DNA of 64,000 nt from Alphaproteobacteria bacterium (GCA_017511715.1 JAFWJF010000007.1:6421-70420); one strand, 5' to 3'; positions 14,639 through 32,455 are shown, numbered from the stretch's first letter. The notes: generated by a model from the sequence alone, not told the origin. Numbers and translations: made by a program.

Positions 14639-15862
14639 TTATATAGACATTTCTTCGCGTGCCATTTGTGCGATTGGTGCAATGTATTTTAATTCTGCAT
14701 CGCTGTGCAAAGATATCGGTTCGATTAAACCACGTCTTGATAATATCTGAAGCCCTCTTTCACAAAGCGGTTTAATAAATTCTTGTAACAAGCGTCCGTA
14801 TGTCGCACCTAAAATACGCACCATATCGGAATTGCGCGCCAATATTTCTGTGGCGGTCATTTCTTTATCTGAAAGAAGCCCTAACCTGTCTGCCAAAAGG
14901 GTGTGACGTATTCTGTCGCGCAAATCGCGTAAAACTATTTGTGAAACATCAAAATTAGAACCACTGGTTAATGGGGTTAAACCCGAACTGCCGACAGCCT
15001 TTGGAATTATTGCCCCTGGGGTCAAATTGATATTAGACAAATTGATAACCCCATCGTCATCAGCCTGCCATATACCACTTACCGCAATTGTCGCGTTTTT
15101 AAGGACCAATTCAACAACTTTGTTTGCAGTTTTAATGTCTGGCAATGCGCGCAATACCGGACTGCGCCCGTATAATTCACCACTTACCAGCGACCAACGG
15201 AATATAATATAAGGATTGGTTTCAAAAGTTCCGCGTGCAACGATATTATTTTCAATATCACCACCAACATCAACCCACGCGGTAAAATCTTTACCTATTA
15301 ACGATTGAACTAATCTGATTGGGGTTTCTGGGTTTGCTTTTATTGTATCACGCAAATTCGCAGGGAATACAAATTGCGGATATTTTTCCATCAAATCACT
15401 TGCCGGCAAAGAAGTCGTATGAAATACCATGCCCGGCAATATCGCAATGTCTTTCATTGGTATCGCAGTAAACGAAAACGCAGAATCTGAACCAATTGGG
15501 TTTTCCGCCATAAATAAACATGCAGTACCAAGGACAACCAAATCAATATAACACTGATGCACGGTTGTATAAAAATTAGAATCGTTCAAATGGGCGCGCA
15601 ACACAGCTGTTGCTACATCTGCATCTGGGGATAAATCACTTTCGCGAACAAGGTTTATCCACAAAGATTCTGGTGGAGTTAAAAGTGAATACATTGATGC
15701 CGCCAGATTATCCACTGCATCTGCCGCAGTTGCATCAAATAACGTTGCTGATTCTGTGTCGTCTGTTGGGACAGTATAACGCAACGCATTTTTCCAACGT
15801 GGCAACCATTGTTCCCTTTCATCAAGAGCGCGTTTATATAATTGCATAAGATTTTTTTGCAT
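14639..15862 (-). CDS. Phage portal (head-to-tail connector)-like protein
   Basis: 407 aa immediately downstream of terminase nuclease half. Recalled (not searched) resemblance to podovirus connector proteins, including a YGRS motif. Confidence 0.55.
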   Translation of the reverse strand: MQKNLMQLYKRALDEREQWLPRWKNALRYTVPTDDTESATLFDATAADAVDNLAASMYSLLTPPESLWINLVRESDLSPDADVATAVLRAHLNDSNFYTTVHQCYIDLVVLGTACLFMAENPIGSDSAFSFTAIPMKDIAILPGMVFHTTSLPASDLMEKYPQFVFPANLRDTIKANPETPIRLVQSLIGKDFTAWVDVGGDIENNIVARGTFETNPYIIFRWSLVSGELYGRSPVLRALPDIKTANKVVELVLKNATIAVSGIWQADDDGVINLSNINLTPGAIIPKAVGSSGLTPLTSGSNFDVSQIVLRDLRDRIRHTLLADRLGLLSDKEMTATEILARNSDMVRILGATYGRLLQEFIKPLCERGLQILSRRGLIEPISLHSDAELKYIAPIAQMAREEMSI

Positions 15863-15882
15863 TTGTTTTTCCTTTTGTTTTG

Positions 15883-16731
15883 TTATATTTGGAAGTCTGT
15901 ATTTGCACGAATCTGATTTAGAGTCCTGCCCTGTGGTCTTGCAGGAACAGGTGTCATAGAAACAGCACCTGCCAATGCATCCAAACCATCATCGTGTTCT
16001 TTGGAACCCATTGGTGTAAACGCCAACATTTCTGCCAACAGCATCGTTTGCTTTATTCTTTCGTGCATATAAAGATGACCTGTTGAAAGCAAAGGTTCCA
16101 AAGCGTTCAAAATTCTTGTTTCTTTTTTTATATGATTAGAAATTTGTATAATATTTATATTTCTTTGGTGTTTGCGCGCAATATCTCGCATAATTTCTGG
16201 CAACGCATTACCAATGCCATTTGTTTCAATACCTATTCTGAATAAATTGTGTTTCTGCATAAAATCAAGAACACTAATACATTGGTTTGTCAAAGGATGC
16301 ATATCTTCATCTTCAACCCCCATGTATATTATATCGTGCACAAAAACGTTTCTGTTTTTATCATCACGATAAACCAACACACAGACACTGCCATCATGAT
16401 TTTGGCGTCCTGTTGATGGGTCCCAATAACACGCCATACCTGTAATATTATTTTCACCGATTCGCGATGAAAACAAATCAAAATCATCAGAATAAAAATG
16501 AACCGCCCCAGGATCCAGTTGAACGCGTTCTTGGGCGACATATTCCAACATCATTTGTGCAGAAAAATGTCGCTGTCCAACAATATCTGCCAATTCATGT
16601 ATTTTTTCAATTGGAAACATTTCTGGCCATGCTGGGTTTCCCGCAGCGTCAATAATAGGTATTTTCAATTGCTTATACCCCTGTAAAAAAGGTATTGAAT
16701 TCTGAAAATTTTCGTTTAATCTAATAGACAT
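15883..16731 (-). CDS. Terminase large subunit, C-terminal nuclease half
   Basis: 282 aa with RNase-H-like terminase nuclease motifs (YWDPSTG, IETNG, HDDGLDALAGA). No ATPase motifs. Its ATG overlaps the dnaB ATG in a CATG tetranucleotide. Confidence 0.7.
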   Translation of the reverse strand: MSIRLNENFQNSIPFLQGYKQLKIPIIDAAGNPAWPEMFPIEKIHELADIVGQRHFSAQMMLEYVAQERVQLDPGAVHFYSDDFDLFSSRIGENNITGMACYWDPSTGRQNHDGSVCVLVYRDDKNRNVFVHDIIYMGVEDEDMHPLTNQCISVLDFMQKHNLFRIGIETNGIGNALPEIMRDIARKHQRNINIIQISNHIKKETRILNALEPLLSTGHLYMHERIKQTMLLAEMLAFTPMGSKEHDDGLDALAGAVSMTPVPARPQGRTLNQIRANTDFQI

Positions 16732-18280
16732 GGACTTTACTCCGAAAACTTTACCTACTAACCTAGAAGCCGAACAGGCCGTTTTGGCTGCGGTATTGAT
16801 GAATAACCGCGCACTGGAATCAGTATCTGATTTTTTGTTGCCGGAACATTTTTCGCATCCTGCACACCAAGAAATTTACAGACTGGCAATGCGTCAATTT
16901 GCCGTTGGAATTCCATTTGATATAATTACCGCCAAAACATACCTTGAACAGCAAGGCACTCTTGAAACCGTCGGTGGCGTTGAATATTTATCAAAATTGG
17001 CTTCTGCTGGCTCTACCGTGGTAAATGTTGAACATTACGGACACATTGTTTTTGATAATGCCCGCCGTCGTGATTTAATTCAGTTGGGACAAAGCATTAT
17101 TGATGATGCTTATACCGAAGATTTAGACAAAACAGTAAATGCACAGATAGAATCTGCGGAACAAAAACTGTTTAATCTTGCATCCACTGGACAAAGTGAA
17201 CACAACGTTGTATCTTTGGCGGACGCATTGAAAAGCGCATTACAAGAAGCCGAAATCGCATATAAAGCAGATGGAAAGTTATCTGGTCTTACAACCGGGT
17301 TGGACGATTTAGACAAATCAATAAGTGGCTTACATCATTCTGATTTAATCATTATTGCTGGTCGTCCTGGTATGGGAAAAACGACATTGGCAATGAACAT
17401 CGCATTTAATGCTGCAAACGCTATATTGAACGAACGCGCGAACGCACAATATAAAGGCGCGGTCGCATTTTTTAGTCTTGAAATGTCTTTTGCGCAATTG
17501 GCAACACGTGTGTTGTCTTCTCAATCAAAAATACCAGCGACACGCATGCGTGAGGGTAATTTGACAGATGAAGACTTTATGAAAATGTCACAATACAGTG
17601 AAGCACTGTCAAAAGTTCCTGTGGTCATTGATGACACGGCAAACATGTCTGTTGCGGCAATAAAAACACGTGCCCGCAGAATTGCCCGTAAATATGGCAA
17701 TATCGCATTGATTGTTATTGACTATTTACAGCTGATGACTTCACCTGGTGGCAAACACAACGACAATCGTGTTCAAGAATTATCAGAAATCACGCGTGGC
17801 TTGAAAATTTTAGCCAAGGAATTAGATGTTCCTGTTATCGCATTGTCTCAGTTATCACGAAGTGTCGAACAACGTGATGACAAACGCCCTGTATTATCAG
17901 ATTTGCGTGAATCTGGTTCTATTGAACAAGATGCGGATATTGTTATGTTTACATACCGCGAAGAATATTACCTTGAAGGACGTTCACCTGATAAAAAATT
18001 ATCCGGGACCGCATCTGAAACGTCCATGCAAAATTGGCAAAAACGCTTAGATAATGTTCGCAACAAAGCAGATGTTATCATCGCCAAGAACCGCCATGGT
18101 AAACCAGAAACTGTTCATTTAAGCTTTACCGGCGAATATTACCTGTTTGATAACCTTAATCAATTTGGTCCACAGCCAACACATGATTCTGAATTTGGAA
18201 ACCAATTCACAACAGCCACATCCGACACAAATATACCAAATGTTGCAGACATTAATGATATTCCTGACGATATGATTTAA
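16730..18280 (+). CDS. dnaB: Replicative DNA helicase DnaB
   Basis: 516 aa; N-terminal LEAEQAVLAAVL motif, Walker A GRPGMGKTT, RecA-like core, ~40 aa C-terminal extension. Confidence 0.92.
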   Translation: MDFTPKTLPTNLEAEQAVLAAVLMNNRALESVSDFLLPEHFSHPAHQEIYRLAMRQFAVGIPFDIITAKTYLEQQGTLETVGGVEYLSKLASAGSTVVNVEHYGHIVFDNARRRDLIQLGQSIIDDAYTEDLDKTVNAQIESAEQKLFNLASTGQSEHNVVSLADALKSALQEAEIAYKADGKLSGLTTGLDDLDKSISGLHHSDLIIIAGRPGMGKTTLAMNIAFNAANAILNERANAQYKGAVAFFSLEMSFAQLATRVLSSQSKIPATRMREGNLTDEDFMKMSQYSEALSKVPVVIDDTANMSVAAIKTRARRIARKYGNIALIVIDYLQLMTSPGGKHNDNRVQELSEITRGLKILAKELDVPVIALSQLSRSVEQRDDKRPVLSDLRESGSIEQDADIVMFTYREEYYLEGRSPDKKLSGTASETSMQNWQKRLDNVRNKADVIIAKNRHGKPETVHLSFTGEYYLFDNLNQFGPQPTHDSEFGNQFTTATSDTNIPNVADINDIPDDMI

Positions 18281-18305
18281 TTTTTACTTGCCAAAGTTTA
18301 GAAAA

Positions 18306-18340
18306 TTGACTAACATTTTGTCAACATATGTATATTCAGG
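18306..18340 (+). promoter_or_regulatory. Promoter with palindromic operator-like site (TTGAC-N9-GTCAA) upstream of XRE repressor gene
   Basis: -35 ttgact, -10 tatatt, RBS caggag. -35 lies inside inverted repeat ttgactaacattttgtcaa. Confidence 0.4.
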
Positions 18341-18348
18341 AGTCCACC

Positions 18349-19356
18349 ATGGCACAAGAAGAAATCATTTTTCCAAATAATATCCGTAACATTCGTGCAA
18401 GCAAAGGTATGAAAATGACAGAATTGGCACGCCGTGCAAATTTGTCATTGTCTGCTGTATCAAAGATTGAAAAAGGCGTTCGCCGTCTTAATCAAAAGCA
18501 GTTGTTAAATGTATGCACTATCTTGGGCTGTAAATTGTCGGATATATTTATTCACGAATCTGATTCTGTTGCACAAAATTGGCAAAACGAAATCAAACGT
18601 CGTTTAACAGACAACGAAGATAGCGGCTTGAAAATATTTGGTTCTGGTCTTCGCAAAATTCGCCAACGCACCGAAAAGACTATCGCCCAGGCCGCACACG
18701 ATGCAAAAATGACATTATCTGTGTATCATAAAATCGAAGTCGGTCAACGCGAAGTTTATGAAAACGAAATCGAAGTTTTGGCCCAGGCTTTTGGGTATAA
18801 AGCCTCTGAATTATTTGACGAAATCGCAAAACTTTACAAGGCTGGTGAATTAACAAAACAGATTAACAAAGTCAAAGAACGTGTCAAATCTGTTTTAGAG
18901 CCTGTAAATCCTATTTCTGGTCTTGACATTCATGGCGGTCTTTACGGCGCACAATTATATGATAATGCCCGCAAAAAATTAGTTCCTGTATTTGGCAAGC
19001 CTTCTGGTAAATCTATCAAATTGAAAAAATCTGATGAAACAATGATTGTGGCACCAACTACATTGGAAGGACACACTGGAATATATGCAGTTGTACCTAA
19101 TTCCAAAAGGTTAGGAGGTTTTGTTCCTGAATCTTCATATATTTTTGTAGACTCTAATTCAACACCAAAAGTTGGTGATTTGGCGGTCTGCATAAATGAA
19201 GATTTTGATAAATTGCCACTTGATGGTACGGCCGATGCCCAGGTTGTGGTTGTTCGTCAAGACAGCCATGGAAAAATGTTTGGTCACATATCTAACCCAG
19301 AAGAAAAGATTTCTGGTAAAACTTTTCACAAGGTTGTTATGATAGTGATGCAATAA
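18349..19356 (+). CDS. Tandem XRE-family HTH repressor with C-terminal S24/LexA-like (apparently non-catalytic) domain
   Basis: Two HTH_3-like segments (MTELARRANLSLSAVSKIEKG; TIAQAAHDAKMTLSVYHKIEVG). C-terminal beta-rich domain resembles S24 peptidase fold but lacks the GDSM serine motif. Confidence 0.65.
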   Translation: MAQEEIIFPNNIRNIRASKGMKMTELARRANLSLSAVSKIEKGVRRLNQKQLLNVCTILGCKLSDIFIHESDSVAQNWQNEIKRRLTDNEDSGLKIFGSGLRKIRQRTEKTIAQAAHDAKMTLSVYHKIEVGQREVYENEIEVLAQAFGYKASELFDEIAKLYKAGELTKQINKVKERVKSVLEPVNPISGLDIHGGLYGAQLYDNARKKLVPVFGKPSGKSIKLKKSDETMIVAPTTLEGHTGIYAVVPNSKRLGGFVPESSYIFVDSNSTPKVGDLAVCINEDFDKLPLDGTADAQVVVVRQDSHGKMFGHISNPEEKISGKTFHKVVMIVMQ

Positions 19357-19388
19357 GGCACTATCTCAAAACACAGGGGAGAGAGAAA

Positions 19389-20030
19389 ATGCAACAGCAA
19401 GCACACACAATCGCGCAACGTTTATTAAACCTTTACCGCCAGGCACATGTTATCGAAGGTGGCTGGGCAGCAGTTAATAAAGTTTTTATTGCAGAATCTA
19501 ATGATGCCCAAGTTATCACGGAACTGGAAAACCTGCCGACCGGCAAACGATTGGTTGCACACATTAATAACCTGCGCAGTGGTAAAACCCCTATGGATTC
19601 CATAGACAAAGATTTGCTGCCATATGGTGGTTTGATGTCTGGGGCGACAGGAAACGTTTCTTTAACCAAAGAAGAAATAAAACAGTTAAAACAAGCGCTA
19701 GATTCTTTTCAACCAACCACAGAAAGTCTGGATGTTATCAAAAACTTACCTTTCGTCAAAAAATTTGGTAACGATTGGGTTGATGACATAAGGTCTGCGA
19801 TTGCGTTTGATAATGATATGCTTACAAAATGGCGCACTGTTGCCCAAACAGACAAGGCATACAAAATCTGGAACAGCGCAAAAGAATTATTATCAGAAAC
19901 ATTGACAGAACGCAATCGTGCCCAAATTCAAGCAGACATGCTGGAATATGAAACTTATTTACCAATGTTTGGCGATGCAGGCAAAGAAGTTTTATCTAAA
20001 CTTCGTACATTTATGTCTTCGCTGTCATAG
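19389..20030 (+). CDS. Hypothetical protein (213 aa) in dnaB-repressor cassette
   Basis: RBS gggagag; no recognisable motifs. Confidence 0.35.
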   Translation: MQQQAHTIAQRLLNLYRQAHVIEGGWAAVNKVFIAESNDAQVITELENLPTGKRLVAHINNLRSGKTPMDSIDKDLLPYGGLMSGATGNVSLTKEEIKQLKQALDSFQPTTESLDVIKNLPFVKKFGNDWVDDIRSAIAFDNDMLTKWRTVAQTDKAYKIWNSAKELLSETLTERNRAQIQADMLEYETYLPMFGDAGKEVLSKLRTFMSSLS

Positions 20031-20031
20031 G

Positions 20032-20667
20032 CTATTCAATTTTGTATATTGTGTCTTGCGTGTGTGGGGTTCCTATGAAAATCATAGTTCCATTTGGCGA
20101 CAATATAAAATCTAGTTCGCGCAGTCTTTCCCGCAGGTTTATTCGTTTTTGCTGTGTATTGCAGGTATTCGGCACTTCTACGTCATCACATATAATCAAA
20201 TCAGAACGCATACCTGTTATATTGCCAGAAATTCCCTGACAAATAACGGATGGTTCTCTGATTCCGATTGGACGATTGATGGTTATTTTATGCGATCCCC
20301 ACTCTTTTTTTACATCCGGCACAATACCTTCACACCACGGGTGATTTTCAATGATATTTTTTATATGCGCCACCATGCGCGATGCCAACCCAGATTCCGC
20401 AGATAATATTAAAATTCTGGTTTCTGGTTTATGATACAATACACACGCAGCAAACACACCAACAACTGTTGATTTCCCAGAATGCCGAAACGCATTTAAC
20501 AGACCGCGATGTGGCGAATTGTTAAACACATCGACCAAAAAACTGAGTATTTGCCGGTGATGTTTTGGCGTTTGCAAACCCAAGACTTTATTCCATGCAT
20601 CTAAGAAATTAAATGCTTCCGTAATCGTCATTGTTTTCGCCATCTGCGTCTTCTGCCACAGAACCAT
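20032..20667 (-). CDS. Terminase large subunit, N-terminal ATPase half
   Basis: 211 aa with Walker A (RHSGKST), Walker B (LIICDDVE) and coupling motif (IFIGTP); ends with a stop, no nuclease domain. Confidence 0.7.
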   Translation of the reverse strand: MVLWQKTQMAKTMTITEAFNFLDAWNKVLGLQTPKHHRQILSFLVDVFNNSPHRGLLNAFRHSGKSTVVGVFAACVLYHKPETRILILSAESGLASRMVAHIKNIIENHPWCEGIVPDVKKEWGSHKITINRPIGIREPSVICQGISGNITGMRSDLIICDDVEVPNTCNTQQKRINLRERLRELDFILSPNGTMIFIGTPHTQDTIYKIE

Positions 20668-21145
20668 AATCGTTTATCATATCTTGTAATACAGACACCA
20701 AATTGTAATACAACCCCAGCACTGCACCGCCCGACATTTTATCTTCTATGGTTGATATTGCATAATCAATTTTTGTCAAAAGATTATCATGGACATTTGC
20801 CCACTGTGCCAAATCGACATCTATGCTGCGAATATCCTGCAGGGCGGCCAATAAAAAATTGAAATCAGTATTCAAATCTTCTGGATCTATTTTAGCAGTT
20901 GTCTGGTAATCAATAACACGGGATAAATCTACTTGACGAAAGATATCTATATTCTTGTTATTTTCTGGTGCGCTGGCAAAAACAACTATGCCCCCACCAA
21001 AATCGTCGTTTGGATTCACTGCGTATTGAGTAGTGTCTAAAACAGTATTATCAATACTAACCTTGACATCAGATTCTTGAAAGAACGGGAAAGAAAATGA
21101 AAATTCTGAGGTTTCTCCATCCCCAACATAAGAGATTTTATACAT
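20609..21145 (-). CDS. Tail fiber-like protein (conserved fiber N-terminal motif)
   Basis: N-terminus YVGDGETSEFSFSFPFFQESDVKV resembles the conserved N-terminal anchor motif of many phage tail fiber proteins. Confidence 0.4.
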   Translation of the reverse strand: MYKISYVGDGETSEFSFSFPFFQESDVKVSIDNTVLDTTQYAVNPNDDFGGGIVVFASAPENNKNIDIFRQVDLSRVIDYQTTAKIDPEDLNTDFNFLLAALQDIRSIDVDLAQWANVHDNLLTKIDYAISTIEDKMSGGAVLGLYYNLVSVLQDMINDYGSVAEDADGENNDDYGSI

Positions 21146-21154
21146 TTTATCCCC

Positions 21155-21502
21155 CTATCCTGCTATTTTATCAACATTTGCCAACCAAGTTTGTAATATG
21201 TTTGGTTTTTTTACTTTCAGTTTATTTATTTTATCCATATTATCTTTTCGTTTTGTATCGTATGGTTGTGCCGTTTCATCACGCAAACGCTTTAATACGG
21301 CGTTTTCAGACAAACCGTTCCCACTGTTTCCTGACGCACCATATTTAGCACGTTGTGATGCTAATGCTTTTTTTATTAAATTTGTTTTATTGGCTTCATC
21401 TTGAGCCATTTGTGCCAATATTTTTTGGCGTTGATTTTCTGCTTCTTTTTTAGAGTCTTTATAATCTAAAACCTTGGTTACATCTGATACTAATTGTCCC
21501 AT
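21155..21502 (-). CDS. Hypothetical virion-associated protein (115 aa)
   Basis: ORF in structural module; Lys-rich, no motif. Confidence 0.3.
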   Translation of the reverse strand: MGQLVSDVTKVLDYKDSKKEAENQRQKILAQMAQDEANKTNLIKKALASQRAKYGASGNSGNGLSENAVLKRLRDETAQPYDTKRKDNMDKINKLKVKKPNILQTWLANVDKIAG

Positions 21503-21517
21503 AAATTACCTCCTTTG

Positions 21518-23230
21518 TTAAATTAAATACCAACCGTCAACAGTGACAGATAATATTGTTGCGCCTAATTGTTCATCGCTGGACACTGTCCAAAGGGGTT
21601 CCATTGTGTTAATTTGAGACCCCAACAAATTCATTGACAAATCACCGTCATACCCCAAAGCATTTGCTTCATAAACGGAATTAGGGATTTCAACACGATA
21701 ATTGTTTATAAACACTGTTTTTGTGTCTTTTACACGCAAAGAAACCTTACGCGCACGAATCTTTTTAGGATTATGCCCATTAACAATCATTGGCAAGGCC
21801 GATATTTTGTATGTAAATTTATACGTTTGAGCATCAATTAAATGCTCTGTGTCAAATTTTTCCAGATAATATTTATTATCTCGTTTTACAATCACATAAG
21901 TATTGTTATCAAAAACGGCGACATATTTGAAAGCACCATCTGTTATATATTTTCCCCATGCTCTAATATCTGTATTTGGGTGCTTATTAAGAACGGCCAT
22001 ATATCCATCAGACATAACTATAAACAACTGATGCGTCAACTGATTAAAGGCGATACTAATCGGATTTCGCATCAAATGTTTTGCCCAAGAGCATAAATCA
22101 TTTGCATTGTATTTTTGACTTAAATCATCCAAGTCTAATTCGCGCACATCTTTGCCTGATTGAGATACAAATACTGTTGCGCCTTCTATTTGTTGCGGCG
22201 GCAAATAAATATTTGTGATACTGCCGACAGAAGTATGTTGTTTAATATTAACATTTGATGGGGTTAACGGAGAATTAGAAATCGCCCATTCGCCCACAGA
22301 AGTCAATATTTGCAAATTATCACTGCTGACTATTGTTGATATTTGATGGTGTTGAGATGATAAAAGCGTCATAAAAATCGCATCATCATCCAGTCCTTCG
22401 CCACTGTCAAAGTTATCATAATCACCAACCTTAGACATCCATATATTGTTTGGCGCAGACTTTGTTCCGCCGAACACCAGCCTGTTTTGATGGAAAGATA
22501 CAGCGCGTGGCCATCCGCGTTTATTACTGAATGCACCGACATACCAATCGCTAATCGCATGTCCGGGACACGTAAATGTACCATTTGTATAAACTATCGC
22601 TACACGCGCACTTTGGACAGATTCGACCAACCATTGTTTCCCATTTATTAGCAATCTTTCCCAAAGCCAATCATTTGCCCAAATATCTTTATCCGCAGTA
22701 AACACAGCATGATTGTTATCAATATCACTGTTCGTGATTGTAATCGACACACCATTCATATCGTCAAACCGCATGAAAGGAACGTTTACAGTCACATCTG
22801 TATTGATATGAAACACGAATTCTTCAATATGAAAACCGCTTGCTTCTTTTGTAAGAATTTGTGGCTTAAAATCTGGATGAACAAAAAAGATTTTATTAAA
22901 TCTTTGTGCGTATTGCAGTTGTTTCAAATCTAAATCAGCCCAATCTGCCGACAAAGATTCTATTTTTTCATCGTTTTCATAGATATCTATGATACGACCA
23001 TAAATAACTAACAAATATTTTTCACTTTCGCTTATTTTGAATGGCACTATTATCGCATCATCTGGTATTTCGTCTATTTGCTTTAAGCCTGGTCTGCGTT
23101 TCAGAGCACCAGATTGTAAAACGTCCATATTTTCAAGACACGTAAGTCCATTATTGTTATTTATCGCGTAAAATTCTGGCGACACTTCACCAAAGGAAAA
23201 AATATTTTGTGTTTTAAGAAAATTTCCCAT
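21518..23230 (-). CDS. Putative tail (tubular/nozzle-like) protein, 570 aa
   Basis: Largest structural ORF, sits where podovirus tail tube B would be; assignment by position and size only. Confidence 0.35.
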   Translation of the reverse strand: MGNFLKTQNIFSFGEVSPEFYAINNNNGLTCLENMDVLQSGALKRRPGLKQIDEIPDDAIIVPFKISESEKYLLVIYGRIIDIYENDEKIESLSADWADLDLKQLQYAQRFNKIFFVHPDFKPQILTKEASGFHIEEFVFHINTDVTVNVPFMRFDDMNGVSITITNSDIDNNHAVFTADKDIWANDWLWERLLINGKQWLVESVQSARVAIVYTNGTFTCPGHAISDWYVGAFSNKRGWPRAVSFHQNRLVFGGTKSAPNNIWMSKVGDYDNFDSGEGLDDDAIFMTLLSSQHHQISTIVSSDNLQILTSVGEWAISNSPLTPSNVNIKQHTSVGSITNIYLPPQQIEGATVFVSQSGKDVRELDLDDLSQKYNANDLCSWAKHLMRNPISIAFNQLTHQLFIVMSDGYMAVLNKHPNTDIRAWGKYITDGAFKYVAVFDNNTYVIVKRDNKYYLEKFDTEHLIDAQTYKFTYKISALPMIVNGHNPKKIRARKVSLRVKDTKTVFINNYRVEIPNSVYEANALGYDGDLSMNLLGSQINTMEPLWTVSSDEQLGATILSVTVDGWYLI

Positions 23231-23248
23231 ATAAAAACTCCCTTGGTT

Positions 23249-23776
23249 CTAGAATCTAGAATCTATCAAAGAAAAACTTTCAATATTTGATTGATTTGAT
23301 GTTGTGCTGTCTATAAATTTGGCAGATTGATATTCAGATTCATATAATGCGCTCATCATTCTGAAAACATTTGCATCCCCAATCAGTGGTATACAAAATT
23401 CCATTGCTAATTTCGTAGCCAACAATGTAGCAAAATATCCAGGAAACATTTCTGGTTCCGTTTTTACTACCGCTGTTATCTTTAATGTATTTTCTGCTGC
23501 TTTTATTCTGTTGCCGATAATTTGACCATTACATTTCAAGATTCTTAAAACTTCTGTTGGAATCAGAAAATCATCGTCTTGTGTTTTATTTAACACTAAT
23601 TCTTTGGTTGCAAACCGCCATGGGAACAAAGACAACAAAGTATCCAAAGTCGGATCAAACAAAGTTCGTGCTAATTGTGCGGCGGCACTGTCTTCACGCC
23701 ATGATTGGATTGGTTTTTCACCAAGTTTTAACAATGCCATCGAACATAAATCTATTTTTGTAAACATAATTCGCAC
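23249..23776 (-). CDS. Putative tail tubular A/adaptor-like protein, 175 aa
   Basis: Position between capsid-like and large tail-like genes. Confidence 0.3.
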   Translation of the reverse strand: MRIMFTKIDLCSMALLKLGEKPIQSWREDSAAAQLARTLFDPTLDTLLSLFPWRFATKELVLNKTQDDDFLIPTEVLRILKCNGQIIGNRIKAAENTLKITAVVKTEPEMFPGYFATLLATKLAMEFCIPLIGDANVFRMMSALYESEYQSAKFIDSTTSNQSNIESFSLIDSRF

Positions 23777-23824
23777 CTATTTATTGAAAAAAATCAGGGG
23801 ACAAATGTCCCCTGATTATGATTA

Positions 23825-24055
23825 TTAAGATAATGCACCAACCGTCACAACACCTTCTGCAACAGTGATAACTTTTATCGCAGAACCATTAGAACCATTG
23901 ATTAAAATGATGTCTCCTGTGTTCATAAGATTTTTCAAGCTGGAAAAATATCCAGATGCGGTTATCGTTGCCAATGTCGCGTTTTCTTTATAATGCCACA
24001 AAGTAAAACCATTTGCATATGCAATCACAGACAAATTTTTATTCTGAAAAGCCAT
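23825..24055 (-). CDS. Small hypothetical structural protein (76 aa)
   Basis: ORF directly downstream of capsid-like gene. Confidence 0.3.
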   Translation of the reverse strand: MAFQNKNLSVIAYANGFTLWHYKENATLATITASGYFSSLKNLMNTGDIILINGSNGSAIKVITVAEGVVTVGALS

Positions 24056-24077
24056 CGTTCTTCCTTTTAGTTATAAA

Positions 24078-24902
24078 TTATTGGGCATCATCATCACATT
24101 TGATACGGACGATACCTTCGTTATCAATTAAAACTGCACCTTGGGACATGCTGTTGCTGATAAAGTGCGCCGCACGTTCACCATGCCATGTGATATCTGT
24201 TTTAACTTCTTGACCGCAGGCATGACCAATACTAGATGCATGGTACATAAAGCAATCACGATCATCGTCACTGATTGGTAATGAATTGCACAGAATCCAA
24301 TTCACACCCAACCATTTACGCGATTCGCAACCATCAACCAATGGTGTGGCATTTCCGACATAGTCAGCAGAAACAAATTCATCCAACGCCAACAATTCAT
24401 TCCATTGATGAACACCAACAATGGCAAATCTGCGACCATCATCAGGAACATCATTGGCATTAAGTTTTTCTAATGCTTCCATTATCAAAGCTTTTGTTAA
24501 ACCAGTTGAATAATCACCAACATATTGTGTTGCACTGTTCATAGCATTGATAATCAATTCATCTGTTTTGCGCCCCAACGCATATGCACCAGCAGACGCA
24601 ACAACACGACGTTCATCGACATTGGTTTTCAATTCATCCAACGAATCAACCCAATCACCTGCATAATAATCTTGCAAAACGCATTCAACAGGTGTGTGAT
24701 TCAGATTCATCACAGGAACAATCCCATGACGTGATTTTGTGCTGGCAATACCTTTGCCAACTTTTTGGAAAGTAGTAGATGCACCAACAACCCCGGTTTT
24801 ACTGCGGATTGTAGAGCGCAATTTTGTGCCCATTTGCTGATAAGCCAAATGAACATCTGCTTCAAATTGTTTTACAAACACTTGATCTACAGACATAGAC
24901 AT
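24078..24902 (-). CDS. Putative major capsid protein (274 aa)
   Basis: Position after scaffold-like gene, size compatible with small HK97-fold coat protein; no search performed. Confidence 0.4.
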   Translation of the reverse strand: MSMSVDQVFVKQFEADVHLAYQQMGTKLRSTIRSKTGVVGASTTFQKVGKGIASTKSRHGIVPVMNLNHTPVECVLQDYYAGDWVDSLDELKTNVDERRVVASAGAYALGRKTDELIINAMNSATQYVGDYSTGLTKALIMEALEKLNANDVPDDGRRFAIVGVHQWNELLALDEFVSADYVGNATPLVDGCESRKWLGVNWILCNSLPISDDDRDCFMYHASSIGHACGQEVKTDITWHGERAAHFISNSMSQGAVLIDNEGIVRIKCDDDAQ

Positions 24903-25145
24903 AAGTAATCCTTTTTGTTAAATCGAAACACGCCATGATGGCGTAATTTATAAAAATTTTGTTTTATGGTTATGCGATAATTCGCGCCACAAACACAAAA
25001 CAACACAAAAAAGGGTCCAAAAGAAATTGGATTATCCAATAAAAAATTCAGTCTGACTTTAACATCGGACTGAAAAATTTATCATCAAAAAAGTCCCCAA
25101 AACCAAGCGTTTTAGGGACTTTTATTAAAAGATTTTTTTACAATC

Positions 25146-25466
25146 TTATTTTTTCTTAACTACTTTTTTAGCAGCTGGTTTTTTTGCAGCAACTTTTTTT
25201 GCAGCTGGTTTTTTTGCAACTGCTTTTTTAGCAACTGGTTTTTTTGCAGCTGGTTTTTTTGCAACTACTTTTTTAGCAGCTGGTTTTTTTGCAACTACTT
25301 TTTTAGCAACTGGTTTTTTTGCAACTACTTTTTTAGCAGCTGGTTTTTTAACAGCAACTTTTTTTGCAGCTGGTTTTTTTGCAGCAACTTTTTTAGCAGG
25401 TGCTTTTTTTGCAGCTGGTTTAGCAGCTGGTTTTGCGCATGCGCATTTTTTCTTTAAGCCAAACAT
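25146..25466 (-). CDS. Histone H1-like Lys/Ala-rich DNA-binding protein (tandem AAKKPAAKKVV repeats)
   Basis: 106 aa, ~10 tandem KKPAAKKV(V/A) repeats encoded by 30-nt DNA tandem repeats; N-terminal KKKCACAK. Confidence 0.6.
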   Translation of the reverse strand: MFGLKKKCACAKPAAKPAAKKAPAKKVAAKKPAAKKVAVKKPAAKKVVAKKPVAKKVVAKKPAAKKVVAKKPAAKKPVAKKAVAKKPAAKKVAAKKPAAKKVVKKK

Positions 25467-25563
25467 AATTCTCTCCTTCTATAAGTTTTGGACAGAACAA
25501 AATTATTTTGTTCTTAAACATATTTTATATGATTCAAAACAAATAGTAAAGAATAAAAATTAT

Positions 25564-26220
25564 TTATGAGTATAATTTTCTGAAACCATTTTCAATTTTT
25601 CTTATGTATTCAGGATCTTGGTCGCGCCAATATTTTGGATCACGCATCATGTTGCGCAACATGTCATCGGACAAATTTTCTGTTGCGTTTTTATCGGTCA
25701 AAACACTTGGTTCAAAAGATTGCATCATCTTATAAACGCCTTGTATTCCCTGGGGTGTAGCGCACAGTTCTTCAAATGCATCAGCAGGCAAATACTTTTC
25801 ACCAAATGCTTTTATTTCACGCAACGCATCGTTCATTTTTTCTGATGATCCAAAAAAATTTTTCAATTCATTTATTGCATTTGATTGATTTTGTAATGCA
25901 AATAAATTTTTTAATGTTGGTTGTAAAAATTCTTCTGCTATCGAATAAATTTTTTCAACTTGTTGTGATGTAAGACCAATTTCATGAAATTTTTCACGAA
26001 CCGATTCGTCATCAAATAAATCATTTACAGGATAATCAGACGCGTTATCTGGCACACCAATTGCATGATTAAATTTTTGTTTTGTGTCTGTATCACTGTC
26101 ATCTTTTGGAATCGAAATCATATTGCCCATCTTTTTTTCAAGTTCGCAATAAGACTTAACCAACGCAGAAGTATTTAATTCGCCGTTTTCATCAAGAAAC
26201 TTTTCAGGTATTTGTTCCAT
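25564..26220 (-). CDS. Scaffolding-like acidic helical protein (218 aa)
   Basis: Acidic, helix-rich, directly upstream of H1-like and capsid-like genes. Confidence 0.35.
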   Translation of the reverse strand: MEQIPEKFLDENGELNTSALVKSYCELEKKMGNMISIPKDDSDTDTKQKFNHAIGVPDNASDYPVNDLFDDESVREKFHEIGLTSQQVEKIYSIAEEFLQPTLKNLFALQNQSNAINELKNFFGSSEKMNDALREIKAFGEKYLPADAFEELCATPQGIQGVYKMMQSFEPSVLTDKNATENLSDDMLRNMMRDPKYWRDQDPEYIRKIENGFRKLYS

Positions 26221-26411
26221 TATTTTTTCCCTTTGATTGCTGATTCTTGTTTAAGGAAATATATTCCGCCCAACGTAAATATTGTTTGCATCATTGTAAA
26301 AATATCTTCGTCACCGATTAAATAAGCACCTATTGCAGATATTATACCGACACTTGATACGACATAAGTTTTTTTGTCTTTCAAATATCCACCTTTGATT
26401 ATTTTATTCAT
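26220..26411 (-). CDS. Holin-like small membrane protein (63 aa)
   Basis: One or two TM helices, charged C-terminus, directly downstream of endolysin. Confidence 0.4.
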   Translation of the reverse strand: MNKIIKGGYLKDKKTYVVSSVGIISAIGAYLIGDEDIFTMMQTIFTLGGIYFLKQESAIKGKK

Positions 26412-26428
26412 TGTTTGTCCTTTTTTAT

Positions 26429-26839
26429 TTACAAATAAAACAAAATATCTTCACATTCTGATATGTATCCGCGCGCCATTGCCCAATCTGGAATAATATT
26501 TGTGTGATGAAATTTTGTTGCGCCGAAAACAGAATCAGGCAAATTTCCACGCATCATTGTTTTTACCGTGCGCAAACACAATTGAAATTTTCTGTCATTT
26601 GCATCTATGTTCAATTTTTCATTACGTTCTGATTTTGTGTTCAGACATTCAAACAAATCAGAATCTTTTGATATTGCATCAAAAGTTTTTCCGTACTTAA
26701 TATGAACATTGTTTATCATGGATGTCATCGCTTCTATAAGTGGCAGCGATTTAGCTTCTGTTTCTGCGAACACAATGCGCGCCAATTTATATGATACGAT
26801 TTGTGCATCATCATTGTTTTTTATCAAAGTTAATTGCAT
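26429..26839 (-). CDS. Cell wall hydrolase SleB-type (Hydrolase_2) endolysin
   Basis: Starts MQLTLIKNNDD at 26839; motifs ARIVFAETEAKSL ... ATKFHHTNIIPDWA typical of SleB-family amidase used as endolysin. The table ORF extends upstream across terminator hairpins using a TTG, so the 26839 start is preferred. Confidence 0.7.
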   Translation of the reverse strand: MQLTLIKNNDDAQIVSYKLARIVFAETEAKSLPLIEAMTSMINNVHIKYGKTFDAISKDSDLFECLNTKSERNEKLNIDANDRKFQLCLRTVKTMMRGNLPDSVFGATKFHHTNIIPDWAMARGYISECEDILFYL

Positions 26840-26861
26840 ATTTTTGCCCCGGTTTTTAGTT

Positions 26862-26928
26862 AAAAAAAGCCCGTGCAAAAAAATGCACAGGCAAAAATAA
26901 AGAATAAAAAAAACCGCAAACACTGCGG
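26862..26928 (-). terminator. Two tandem intrinsic terminators in the leader of the virion/lysis operon
   Basis: Minus-strand hairpins ccgcagtgtttgcgg+U8 (26906-26928) and gcctgtgca-ttttttt-gcacgggc+U7 (26862-26892), between promoter and endolysin start. Confidence 0.6.
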
Positions 26929-26939
26929 ACATAATTTCT

Positions 26940-26985
26940 ATTCTTGATGCTTTATATAATATCACAAATTGACACAAAAGTCAAG
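26940..26985 (-). promoter_or_regulatory. Strong sigma70-like promoter for virion/lysis operon (also birA terminator region)
   Basis: Minus strand TTGACT-17 nt-TATTAT; -35 lies in palindrome TTGAC-N6-GTCAA. Confidence 0.55.
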
Positions 26986-28107: not shown

Positions 28108-28353
28108 CTACATACTATGCGGTTCATGGGCAGGGATAAACTTTGTAAAATCTTCCAACGAAGAACCAGTAGAAGCCAAAATTTTGGAAATACTGTTGGT
28201 TGATGGCCAACGTGGCTGTCCTTCTTTGGACCAGCGTTTGCTTTTGTTAAAGGTCGTTGGGTCCAAACCACTGCATTTAGCAAGCCCGGAACAAGACATA
28301 TTATGTTCCATTGCAAATTTTTCTATTGCACGCCACACATCTTCATGCGTCAT
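28108..28353 (-). CDS. Ner/Nlp-like HTH DNA-binding protein
   Basis: 81 aa; pattern W-x-D/E-V...LS...GL.PTT......W.KEG..RWP matches Mu Ner / Nlp family by eye. Confidence 0.5.
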   Translation of the reverse strand: MTHEDVWRAIEKFAMEHNMSCSGLAKCSGLDPTTFNKSKRWSKEGQPRWPSTNSISKILASTGSSLEDFTKFIPAHEPHSM

Positions 28354-31459: not shown

Positions 31460-32455
31460 TTGATTCAAGCCACGATTTATGATAAAATAAAAAATATGAC
31501 GAATGTAGTACTTGAATCTTTATTAAAGCCATTGGAAGAATTTTATCGCCCTTCCTTTGTTGAAGAAATCGCGATAAACCATGCTGGCGAAGTATGGATG
31601 CGCCTTAACGGTGGGCGTGTTCCATGGGTTTCTTATAACGCAGATATTTTATCTAAACAGTATTTGGTCGATTTAATTCACACGGTTGCAAACATATACG
31701 AACGCCCATTTGATCCGATTCATGGTGTGCCGGTTGTTTATGCGACTTTGCCGGGCAATCATCGTTTTTCTGCGATTGCTGGTCCAAATGTTCAGTATGA
31801 TGAAAACGATGTCACCGGGGGGGTTGCATTAAATATTCGCGGCGGTGGCGTTAACGAGACCAGTTTCGAGAATTATCATCTTAAACGTGGGGAAAAATTA
31901 CTAAAAATAAAACCGCGCGAAAATGTCCGCCCTGATGACCCATACGAACGATTGATGTCCGCAATAAATGACGGCAGTCCGATTTTAATATCAGGCGCAA
32001 CATCAACAGGTAAGACCACATTCCTTAATCACATGTTGACATTGATAGACCAAAACAGTCGCGTTATCACTGTCGAAGATGCGCGCGAAATTCGTGTTCC
32101 GCAAAAAAATCGTGTTCATTTTGTCTTGTCACGGACGGAACAAACAAACGATTTTAATTATGCACGATTGCTTGATTTGGTTGTTCGCATGACCCCAGAT
32201 GTTATAATCGGTGGGGAAATATCCACTGATAATGCAGCGGTACTTTGGGAAATGTTGGGAACCGGGCATGACCATTTTTACACAACAATCCATGCAGAAA
32301 GCGCAGAAGCAGCATATGCCGCATTCGCAGACCGCATATTGCATACCCAACCCGCATACGACAGAACCGATTTAATCGCAGAAATGAAAAAGAAAATTCG
32401 TGTAGTCCAACTTTCACGCGAAGGGACTTTGCGTGCTGTAACGGAAGTTGTTTAA
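31460..32455 (+). CDS. VirB11/TrbB-family type IV secretion ATPase (orphan)
   Basis: Walker A GATSTGKTT, Asp box and His box spacing typical of P-loop T2SS/T4SS ATPases, ~320 aa like TrbB/VirB11; true start may be the internal Met at ~31496. Confidence 0.7.
   Translation: MIQATIYDKIKNMTNVVLESLLKPLEEFYRPSFVEEIAINHAGEVWMRLNGGRVPWVSYNADILSKQYLVDLIHTVANIYERPFDPIHGVPVVYATLPGNHRFSAIAGPNVQYDENDVTGGVALNIRGGGVNETSFENYHLKRGEKLLKIKPRENVRPDDPYERLMSAINDGSPILISGATSTGKTTFLNHMLTLIDQNSRVITVEDAREIRVPQKNRVHFVLSRTEQTNDFNYARLLDLVVRMTPDVIIGGEISTDNAAVLWEMLGTGHDHFYTTIHAESAEAAYAAFADRILHTQPAYDRTDLIAEMKKKIRVVQLSREGTLRAVTEVV

Follow-up and report, generated by a model that had tools for sequence, protein, structure and literature searches.

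The window analyzed here is a stretch of 64,000 nucleotides (nt) from an Alphaproteobacteria bacterium (GCA_017511715.1, JAFWJF010000007.1:6421-70420), and the gene under study encodes a Lys/Ala/Pro/Val repeat product that we call the KA protein. A first-pass annotation had described an open reading frame (ORF) of 106 amino acids (aa) with Lys/Ala repeats, lying between scaffold-like and capsid-like genes. The ORF is exactly as described, on the minus strand, and Pfam matches identify its upstream neighbor as a scaffold gene and its downstream neighbor as a capsid gene:

25146-25466, minus strand: KA coding sequence from ATG to TAA, 106 aa, also called as a gene in public assemblies
25564-26220, minus strand: scaffold gene, T7 capsid-assembly-like (PF05396, E=1.8e-9; phrog_3742), product with a net charge of -14
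24078-24902, minus strand: major capsid protein gene (PF19821, E=1.5e-72; phrog_3437)

The KA protein and its family

The KA protein contains 42 Lys, 32 Ala, 15 Val, 11 Pro and 2 Cys residues (40% Lys and 30% Ala), with no Asp, Glu or Arg, and has a net charge of +42 and a mass of 10.9 kDa. The N-cap MFGLKKK is followed by a Cys pair (CACA; N-terminal sequence MFGLKKKCACA), by approximately 19 x-x-x-K-K pentads of the form (P/V/A)(A/V)(A/V)KK, and by a C-terminal KKK, with the lysines recurring at a period of 5 residues (autocorrelation 0.86 at lag 5). At the DNA level the gene is 0.76 identical to itself at lag 15 and 0.87 at lag 30, and Tandem Repeats Finder reports a 15-nt unit in 17.2 copies at 25164-25421. 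The earlier count of about ten 30-nt copies is therefore essentially right, the 30-nt double unit being present approximately 8.6 times and encoding the decapeptide PAAKKVVAKK. Frame 0 is the sole stop-free frame on the minus strand, the other two sense frames containing stops; two antisense frames across the gene are also stop-free but have no start codon. An antisense gene was rejected because neither a start codon nor a listed ORF is found there and because the Shine-Dalgarno (SD) sequence and ATG are conserved on the minus strand. AlphaFold2 modeled no secondary structure (pLDDT 62, pTM 0.11), and the protein is predicted from this model to be disordered.

Comparison with family models resulted in a match to Pfam HC2 (PF07382) of 65.6 bits, against a gathering score of 40, in agreement with the histone H1/Hc2-like composition noted in the first-pass annotation; this match is driven by composition. 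The curated NCBIfam models scored 40.2 bits for NF038052 (Hc2; cutoff 135) and 46.7 bits for NF038053 (Burkholderia-type H1-like; cutoff 80), both below cutoff. The winged-helix H15 domain of linker histones (PF00538) gave no hit in KA and the AlphaFold2 model has no folded element, so that KA, having no H15 globular domain, is not a linker histone. No PHROG family was matched at E<=0.01, and a sequence search of the PDB with KA returned only K/A-rich regions of Streptomyces sigma factors. Similarly, a protein database search with KA returned compositional look-alikes and none of the true orthologues, the look-alikes being K/A tails on SWIB, MetJ, SEC-C, L30 and linker-histone H15 proteins (mostly SWIB, MetJ and H15). 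Because similarity of this kind is of low complexity, homology with Hc2 or H1-like proteins cannot be claimed from it.

Related loci were collected by a capsid-anchored scan with one genome per species, which yielded 505 relatives; the best 80 of these, analyzed as L001-L080, are all Candidatus (Ca.) Enterousia-type alphaproteobacterial metagenome-assembled genomes (MAGs) from rumen and gut. A parallel scan of IMG/VR added 80 further contigs. In this survey, which rests on loci found through the capsid gene, the capsid gene is immediately preceded, on its own strand, by an intact K/A-rich ORF in all 85 loci with enough upstream sequence, and in contigs that break inside the KA gene its C-terminal end is still visible. 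The frameshifts or stop codons that would have marked the ORF as unexpressed are absent from every relative (85/85 ORFs intact). Trimmed to their true starts, the orthologues are 52-163 aa long with masses of 6-17 kDa, and each of the 85 has a short, hydrophobic N-cap (MFGL, MFFGS or MAFTFL) and ends in KKK or KRK. The family as a whole is composed of 38% Lys, 30.5% Ala, 13% Val and 11% Pro, with 0.1% Glu and approximately no Asp, Asn or Gln. The near absence of these four residues, although they are one substitution away from AAA and GCN codons, indicates that the charge of KA is under strong selection. The KA ORF is thus more than a chance reading frame; it is a real, conserved gene whose composition is constrained.

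The number of repeats, which the first-pass annotation had expected to vary between strains, does so between close relatives. In pairs of loci that share 95-98% identity over their 1.2-kb flanks, KA measures 97 versus 52 aa in L016 and L017, a clean internal deletion of 45 aa, and similar pairs differ by 114 versus 136 aa (L054/L056), 136 versus 107 aa (L056/L062) and 146 versus 118 aa (L060/L061). Since the flanks are so nearly identical, the repeat number changes far faster than point substitutions accumulate, with the caveat that most of these loci come from short-read MAGs, in which assembly can collapse long repeats. For the window itself, the identical 106-aa protein occurs in 5 contigs from 4 independent assemblies, and its repeat number is therefore no accident of assembly.

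Cysteine is present in 77 of 82 distinct family members (94%), 60 of which have two or more. It lies within the first 15 residues in 36 proteins (KKKCACAK, KKKCGCTK) and within the last 20 residues in 41 (CAKKACAKKK, CAKCAKKK, CACKK), never at both ends of one protein and not once among the 6,140 intervening residues. This distribution indicates that a Cys pair near one terminus is selected, whichever end that is, and suggests that the terminal cysteines serve in end-to-end linking or docking by metal or disulfide. Between clades the pair has moved from the N-terminus to the C-terminus; in the window the Cys site is at 25431-25445.

Transcription signals of the KA gene

The KA gene is surrounded by a set of expression signals of its own:

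25471-25477, minus strand: SD sequence AGGAGAG, 4-6 nt before the ATG
25522-25550, minus strand: sigma-70-type promoter TTTACT-N17-TAAAAT for the KA gene, hexamers conserved in the orthologues
25494-25514, no strand assigned: palindrome AGAACAAAA-TAA-TTTTGTTCT, invariant, between the -10 box and the SD sequence
25085-25124, minus strand: intrinsic terminator with a 15-bp G+C-rich stem and U6, directly after the KA stop codon
25041-25076, minus strand: second hairpin UUCAGUCnGAU...GUCnGACUGAA (UUCAGUCAGAU...GUCUGACUGAA) with a U-run, sequence-conserved and covarying
24903-25040, minus strand: rest of the KA-capsid spacer, with hairpins GGAYAAUCC..GGACCC and UGGCGCA..UGCAUAACCA, a variable GC hairpin and the capsid SD sequence AAAGGA

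A GGAG-core SD sequence precedes the ATG in 85/85 loci, being AGGAGAG in nearly all and AGGAGGG or GGGAGAG in a few, and the promoter elements CTTTACT and ATAAAAT are conserved in both the near and the far orthologue clades. The palindrome, whose half-sites can also be written GAACAAAA-N-TTTTGTTC, is unique in the window; each of 82 loci has a single copy of it, in every case upstream of the KA gene. We considered a stabilizing 5' RNA hairpin as its role and found this unsupported, as the palindrome folds only weakly as RNA (z = -1.2) and its arms show neither compensatory changes nor covariation. For the same two reasons the palindrome looks more like a protein-binding site, and a putative operator is more likely than an element of the 5' untranslated region; the spacing of the half-sites, which differs by 1-2 nt between loci, counts for caution in this assignment.

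Downstream of the stop codon, the position of the first terminator is taken in each orthologue by one or two GC hairpins that differ from species to species and carry a T-run. The second hairpin has 11 pairs, 10 of which show two-sided compensatory changes in at least one sequence (one pair in 13 such sequences), and it may be a terminator or attenuator, as predicted from its conserved pairing and U-run. In the orthologues two further hairpins come after it, and these too show compensatory changes. The whole KA-capsid spacer (24903-25145, minus strand, 243 nt) folds with z = -6.7. It forms a chain of four to five hairpins, two of them followed by U-runs and several with compensatory changes across 39 species. 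Rfam gave no family match to this structured spacer and only sub-threshold hits to terminator-like small RNA models, and no sigma-70 promoter for the capsid gene was found; the spacer may act as a regulated attenuator or leader for capsid expression. The motif TGGCGC...GCATAACC upstream of the capsid gene was evaluated as a sigma-54 promoter and rejected, because its GG-to-GC spacing ranges over 8-12 nt across loci and its flanks covary as a hairpin.

Where the sequence allows, every KA locus has its own promoter, palindrome and terminators. The lysin-holin-scaffold operon upstream is driven by a different promoter, TTGACT-17-TATTAT, overlapped by another palindrome, TTGAC-N6-GTCAA, so the KA gene is not wired like its structural neighbors. 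Taken together, the promoter, palindrome and terminators indicate that KA is an autonomous accessory unit rather than a co-transcribed head gene.

Repeats of the TGTCAA and TTGAC-N6-GTCAA type occur both over the -35 element of the lysin-scaffold promoter (26956-26984) and upstream of p81 (28108-28353, minus strand), an 81-aa protein that corresponds to the helix-turn-helix (HTH) part of a CI/LexA-like repressor and is 81-94% conserved. A full version with HTH and Peptidase_S24 domains (210 aa) is encoded in a distant relative of the cluster (L140, 2436-3068, minus strand); the Enterousia copy of p81 has no self-cleavage domain.

The phage-derived cluster and the scaffold-capsid slot

The KA gene belongs to a larger set of phage-derived genes, which the first-pass annotation had referred to as the head module:

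14639-26977, minus strand with three genes on the plus strand: whole phage-derived cluster, order and host flanks conserved in L001-L080

On the minus strand the order is lysin-like protein, 63-aa two-helix membrane protein, scaffold, KA, capsid, p76, tail-tube A-like, tail-tube B-like, p115, T7 fiber N-terminal domain and the ATPase half of TerL; there follow p213, a double-HTH protein and a replicative DnaB on the plus strand, and then the nuclease half of TerL and the portal. The embedded DnaB is a bona fide replicative helicase by its match to NF006606 (620 bits, cutoff 540). This order, with the host genes BirA, RlmD-like and dnaB included, recurs in practically all of L001-L080. Across about 80 species representatives the capsid, at 82-97% identity, is more conserved than DnaB (65-93%) or BirA (57-87%). 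By capsid identity, Pelagibacter phage Hodr (44%) is the nearest real phage, followed by small Vibrio podophages (33%). Pfam and PHROGs searches of 14639-26977 found no integrase, no replication module and no gp14-16-type internal or ejection proteins, and a simple lipobox and hydropathy scan found no lipobox or spanin-like ORF in the cluster.

Fixation at one site, vertical inheritance and purifying selection, together with the absence of integrase and replication genes, show this to be a phage-derived cluster and not an active prophage. Instead of an ordinary head module, it is a cluster fixed at one chromosomal site and interleaved with dnaB in about 80 species-level genomes. A structural cluster that is chromosomally fixed, vertically inherited, under purifying selection and devoid of replication and integration modules is what is expected of a gene transfer agent (GTA) or viriform, and these HTVC010P/T7-like head, tail and lysis genes are, by that reasoning from their sequences, a candidate podovirus-type GTA. 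In the literature consulted we found no description of a Ca. Enterousia podovirus-type cluster, and FpGTA of Faecalibacterium, described as the first of its kind (PMC12946183), was the sole podovirus-like GTA-type element there. With its split terminase enclosing dnaB, the cluster is probably more novel than the KA protein itself, and as a candidate podovirus-type GTA it merits study of its own.

TerL is split at the boundary of its ATPase and nuclease domains, the ORFs lying at 20032-20667 and 15883-16731 (both minus strand); one half has 211 aa with Walker A/B motifs and the other 282 aa with an RNase-H-like nuclease. The 3.3-kb insert between them (16730-20030, plus strand) encodes DnaB, the 342-aa double-HTH protein and the 213-aa protein, and the split is conserved in all related loci. 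It was placed from motifs and Pfam domains, BLASTP against the Vibrio phage TerL being too divergent. No homologue of the tail-fiber N-domain gene (20609-21145, minus strand) could be detected in some 25 of the related loci listed (~30%; L006, L011, L014 and others) while its neighbors are conserved, and tail-tube B and p115 are the fastest-evolving genes of the cluster; this pattern of fiber loss and fast tail genes is as expected if particles still interact with cell surfaces. Near the cluster, a VirB11/TrbB-like secretion ATPase (31460-32455, plus strand), which scores below the NCBIfam equivalog cutoffs, is 88-97% identical genus-wide, and its gene is among the most conserved in this neighborhood.

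The gap between the scaffold and capsid genes had been regarded as the place where podoviruses keep internal or ejection proteins, a view that the relatives do not bear out. In Vibrio phage 434O48-1 the scaffold gene abuts the capsid gene, and the internal-protein genes, for a lytic transglycosylase and a large coiled-coil protein, come after the nozzle gene, downstream of the tail-tube genes. Other relatives hold unrelated cargo or nothing in the slot. In high-GC relatives, whose capsid identity is 59-62%, no more than about 250 nt separate the scaffold gene from the capsid gene; the slot of Pelagibacter phage Hodr contains an unrelated ORF of 191 aa (L161, 6386-6961), and two further loci (L129, 2121-2687; L131, 2089-2697) encode a multi-pass membrane protein of about 190-200 aa with its own promoter. 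One of these, L129, has 77% capsid identity and the same BirA flank, and retains the -35 element CTTTACT at the position of the KA promoter, before a different cargo. The membrane protein of L131 has Arg/Asn-rich basic tails. KA itself is carried by all loci in which capsid identity reaches 78% or more and the upstream sequence is long enough. As the slot is empty or differently filled in relatives, the scaffold-capsid gap is a variable cargo slot, whose cargo in one clade is KA. A promoter and terminator of its own, a place between genes that are direct neighbors in related elements, and replacement by other cargo in some of these give KA the makeup of a phage moron. Like the morons of lambdoid phages and HK97, it is an extra promoter-terminator unit between adjacent conserved head genes; it differs from them in that its host element is domesticated and immobile and in that its cargo is a polycation rather than a typical lysogenic-conversion factor.

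Proposed function of the KA protein

A few bacteria are known to compact their nucleoid with stand-alone proteins of lysine/alanine repeats, the model being Hc2 of Chlamydia, and the H1-like proteins of Burkholderia, Bordetella and Pseudomonas are nucleoid- or DNA-associated. The latter (NF038053, BpH1 and the C-terminal KPAA region of AlgP) share AKKPAAKK-type repeats and a high positive charge with KA. AlgP, unlike KA, has a large N-terminal domain, and we know of no protein of this group that is encoded in a capsid gene cluster. Hc2 (HctB) of Chlamydia trachomatis resembles KA in being a stand-alone Lys/Ala-rich protein of lysine-rich pentamers with in-frame variation in repeat number, and in being predicted to have no globular domain. 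Compared to Hc2, KA is approximately half the size, has almost no Arg, and is set apart by its hydrophobic N-cap and by the Cys pair near one terminus; its gene also lies in a phage-derived capsid cluster, whereas Hc2 is the product of a developmental late gene. Hc2 binds DNA and ranges from 165 to 237 aa according to its number of lysine-rich pentamers (PMC2848022). The C-terminal tail of eukaryotic H1 and sperm protamine-like proteins have K/A/P composition and disorder in common with KA, and act by charge-neutralizing DNA condensation of the sort that KA may, by analogy, perform. Protamines are Arg-rich and lock their condensates by Cys, while KA has Lys throughout and a role for its Cys is speculative.

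We tentatively favor, over the alternatives considered below, the reading that KA is a polycation of the Hc2/H1 kind, expressed autonomously, which binds DNA, most likely that of the cell, and compacts it, and which is probably not a fixed component of the capsid. Under this proposal KA would be a lineage-specific, self-contained moron occupying a slot of the domesticated podovirus-type cluster in Ca. Enterousia-type alphaproteobacteria. It would be transcribed from its own sigma-70-type promoter, probably gated by a repressor or other factor that recognizes the KA-only palindrome, and translated at a high level from a perfect SD sequence, with transcription stopping at its own tandem terminators. 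The protein would then bind along DNA non-specifically and electrostatically, neutralizing phosphate charge and compacting or bridging the DNA. If only charge density matters, the length of KA would be unimportant and the repeat number could drift, while the terminal Cys pair and hydrophobic N-cap would probably serve in end-linking or docking. The site of action would most likely be DNA inside the cell, namely the nucleoid, possibly in cells committed to particle production.

DNA binding, compaction and the site of action are what we infer rather than what was observed, and several lines of evidence bear on them. A site on cellular DNA is favored because KA is regulated separately from the head genes, because the same head genes function without KA in sister lineages and phages, and because all characterized proteins of this kind are nucleoid-associated. 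The difference of up to 45 aa between near relatives fits a polymer-like binder and not a part of fixed dimensions. Genomes of Ca. Enterousia-type organisms are smaller than 1 Mb (PMC12306168), and retention of KA in genomes of this size implies that it has a function.

Other considerations weigh against this proposal. DNA binding is suggested by composition, the HC2 score is itself compositional, and KA lies below the cutoffs of both curated NCBIfam H1-like models. Moreover, KA has kept its place beside the scaffold and capsid genes in the whole clade. With its net charge of -14, the acidic scaffold would be a natural partner for loading a polycation into proheads, which lends some probability to a role linked to particles. 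As the synteny of the whole region is frozen, the position of KA argues neither way. The palindrome would imply conditional expression, which is unusual for a housekeeping nucleoid protein. A search of the window for HU/IHF signatures found nothing, a result with little bearing on the whole genome.

The foremost alternative, which we consider unlikely, is that KA is a protamine-like internal head protein that enters proheads, for example by way of the acidic scaffold, and acts as counter-ion or condenser of the particle DNA, where it might take the place of polyamines or of the internal core proteins that the cluster lacks. The position of the gene between those for the acidic scaffold and the capsid is in keeping with this, as is the lack of gp14-16-type core or ejection proteins in the cluster. 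The terminal Cys pair, present at one end or the other in 94% of the family, recalls protamine cross-linking, and the conserved hydrophobic N-cap could serve as a targeting signal. Phage-encoded H1-like proteins have also been speculated to compact phage genomes (PMC12619734). T4 IPI-III, adenovirus VII and mu, and T7 gp14-16 offer a possible analogy as basic proteins that travel with or neutralize packaged DNA; KA differs from these in having no sequence or PHROG match and another gene position. Against packaging, the promoter, palindrome and terminators of KA are not common to the head genes, and the same head genes occur without KA in sister lineages and in relatives that are true phages. 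The three-fold variation in length fits poorly with a defined structural role, and neither a targeting or cleavage signal in KA nor a prohead protease in the cluster is evident. Finally, when IMG/VR was searched by pattern for the regulatory cassette of KA, it yielded only 15 short fragments of the same chromosomal cluster and never a complete phage genome.

A narrower form of this idea, in our judgment rather unlikely, ties it to the candidate GTA: KA would be the protamine-like condenser of a podovirus-type GTA, loaded into proheads by the scaffold, linked end to end through its cysteines (by disulfide or Zn) and serving in place of polyamines or core proteins. If so, it would be the first histone- or protamine-like packaged protein known in a tailed-phage-type particle.

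Binding of KA to another polyanion is doubtful, whether RNA or ribosomes, as a translation repressor or chaperone, or polyphosphate granules, binding to which is discussed for Pseudomonas AlgP. Electrostatic binders are promiscuous, and the look-alikes of KA include K/A tails on ribosomal protein L30 and on SEC-C proteins. H1-like proteins have been discussed together with polyphosphate and bacterial chromatin (PMC11894788), and Hc1 binds RNA besides DNA according to a reference cited in PMC12619734. Yet nothing specific in the locus indicates RNA or polyphosphate, and those stand-alone relatives that have been studied best (Hc2 and the H1-like proteins of Burkholderia and Bordetella) bind DNA.

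Polylysine-type polycations permeabilize outer membranes, and an improbable possibility is that KA is a lysis accessory that destabilizes the outer membrane at the last step of lysis in place of spanins. A lysin-like gene and the 63-aa two-helix membrane protein lie just upstream, the simple scan found no spanin, and the slot of sister lineages holds a membrane protein that is perhaps envelope-related. The precedent is gp28 of phiKT, a cationic disruptin of a spanin-less podophage that acts on the outer membrane in lysis (bioRxiv 10.1101/515445). Like KA, gp28 is small and cationic and comes from a podophage-type element without spanins. It is, however, a short amphipathic peptide, whereas KA is much longer, far more charged, Pro-rich, polylysine-like and non-amphipathic, unlike disruptins of the antimicrobial-peptide type. 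The promoter and palindrome of KA are also separate from the lysis operon, and the absence of spanins rests on a simple lipobox and hydropathy scan.

That the ORF is non-functional, an expansion-prone repeat open by chance or an element acting at the DNA level, is highly implausible: A-rich low-complexity repeats can stay open by chance, as the two stop-free antisense frames illustrate, but those frames have no start codon, the other sense frames have stops, and the intact ORFs combine an invariant SD sequence and ATG, conserved ends, excluded acidic residues, terminally confined Cys, a dedicated promoter and terminators, and retention in genomes below 1 Mb.

The KA family extends the bacterial H1-like class of K/A-repeat proteins to an unusual context, that of an uncultured, genome-reduced gut lineage in which the gene is a separately regulated insert inside a phage-derived cluster under strong purifying selection. 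Should KA act on the DNA of the cell, it would be a clean case of a moron retained after phage domestication; should it be packaged, it would represent a new way for tailed-phage-type particles to handle the charge of DNA. With a protein of 100 aa, one promoter and one palindrome, the locus is a compact and testable system. Additionally, the fast change in KA repeat number could make the gene a strain marker for Ca. Enterousia, as with hctB for Chlamydia, whose repeat number is known to change rapidly (PMC2848022).

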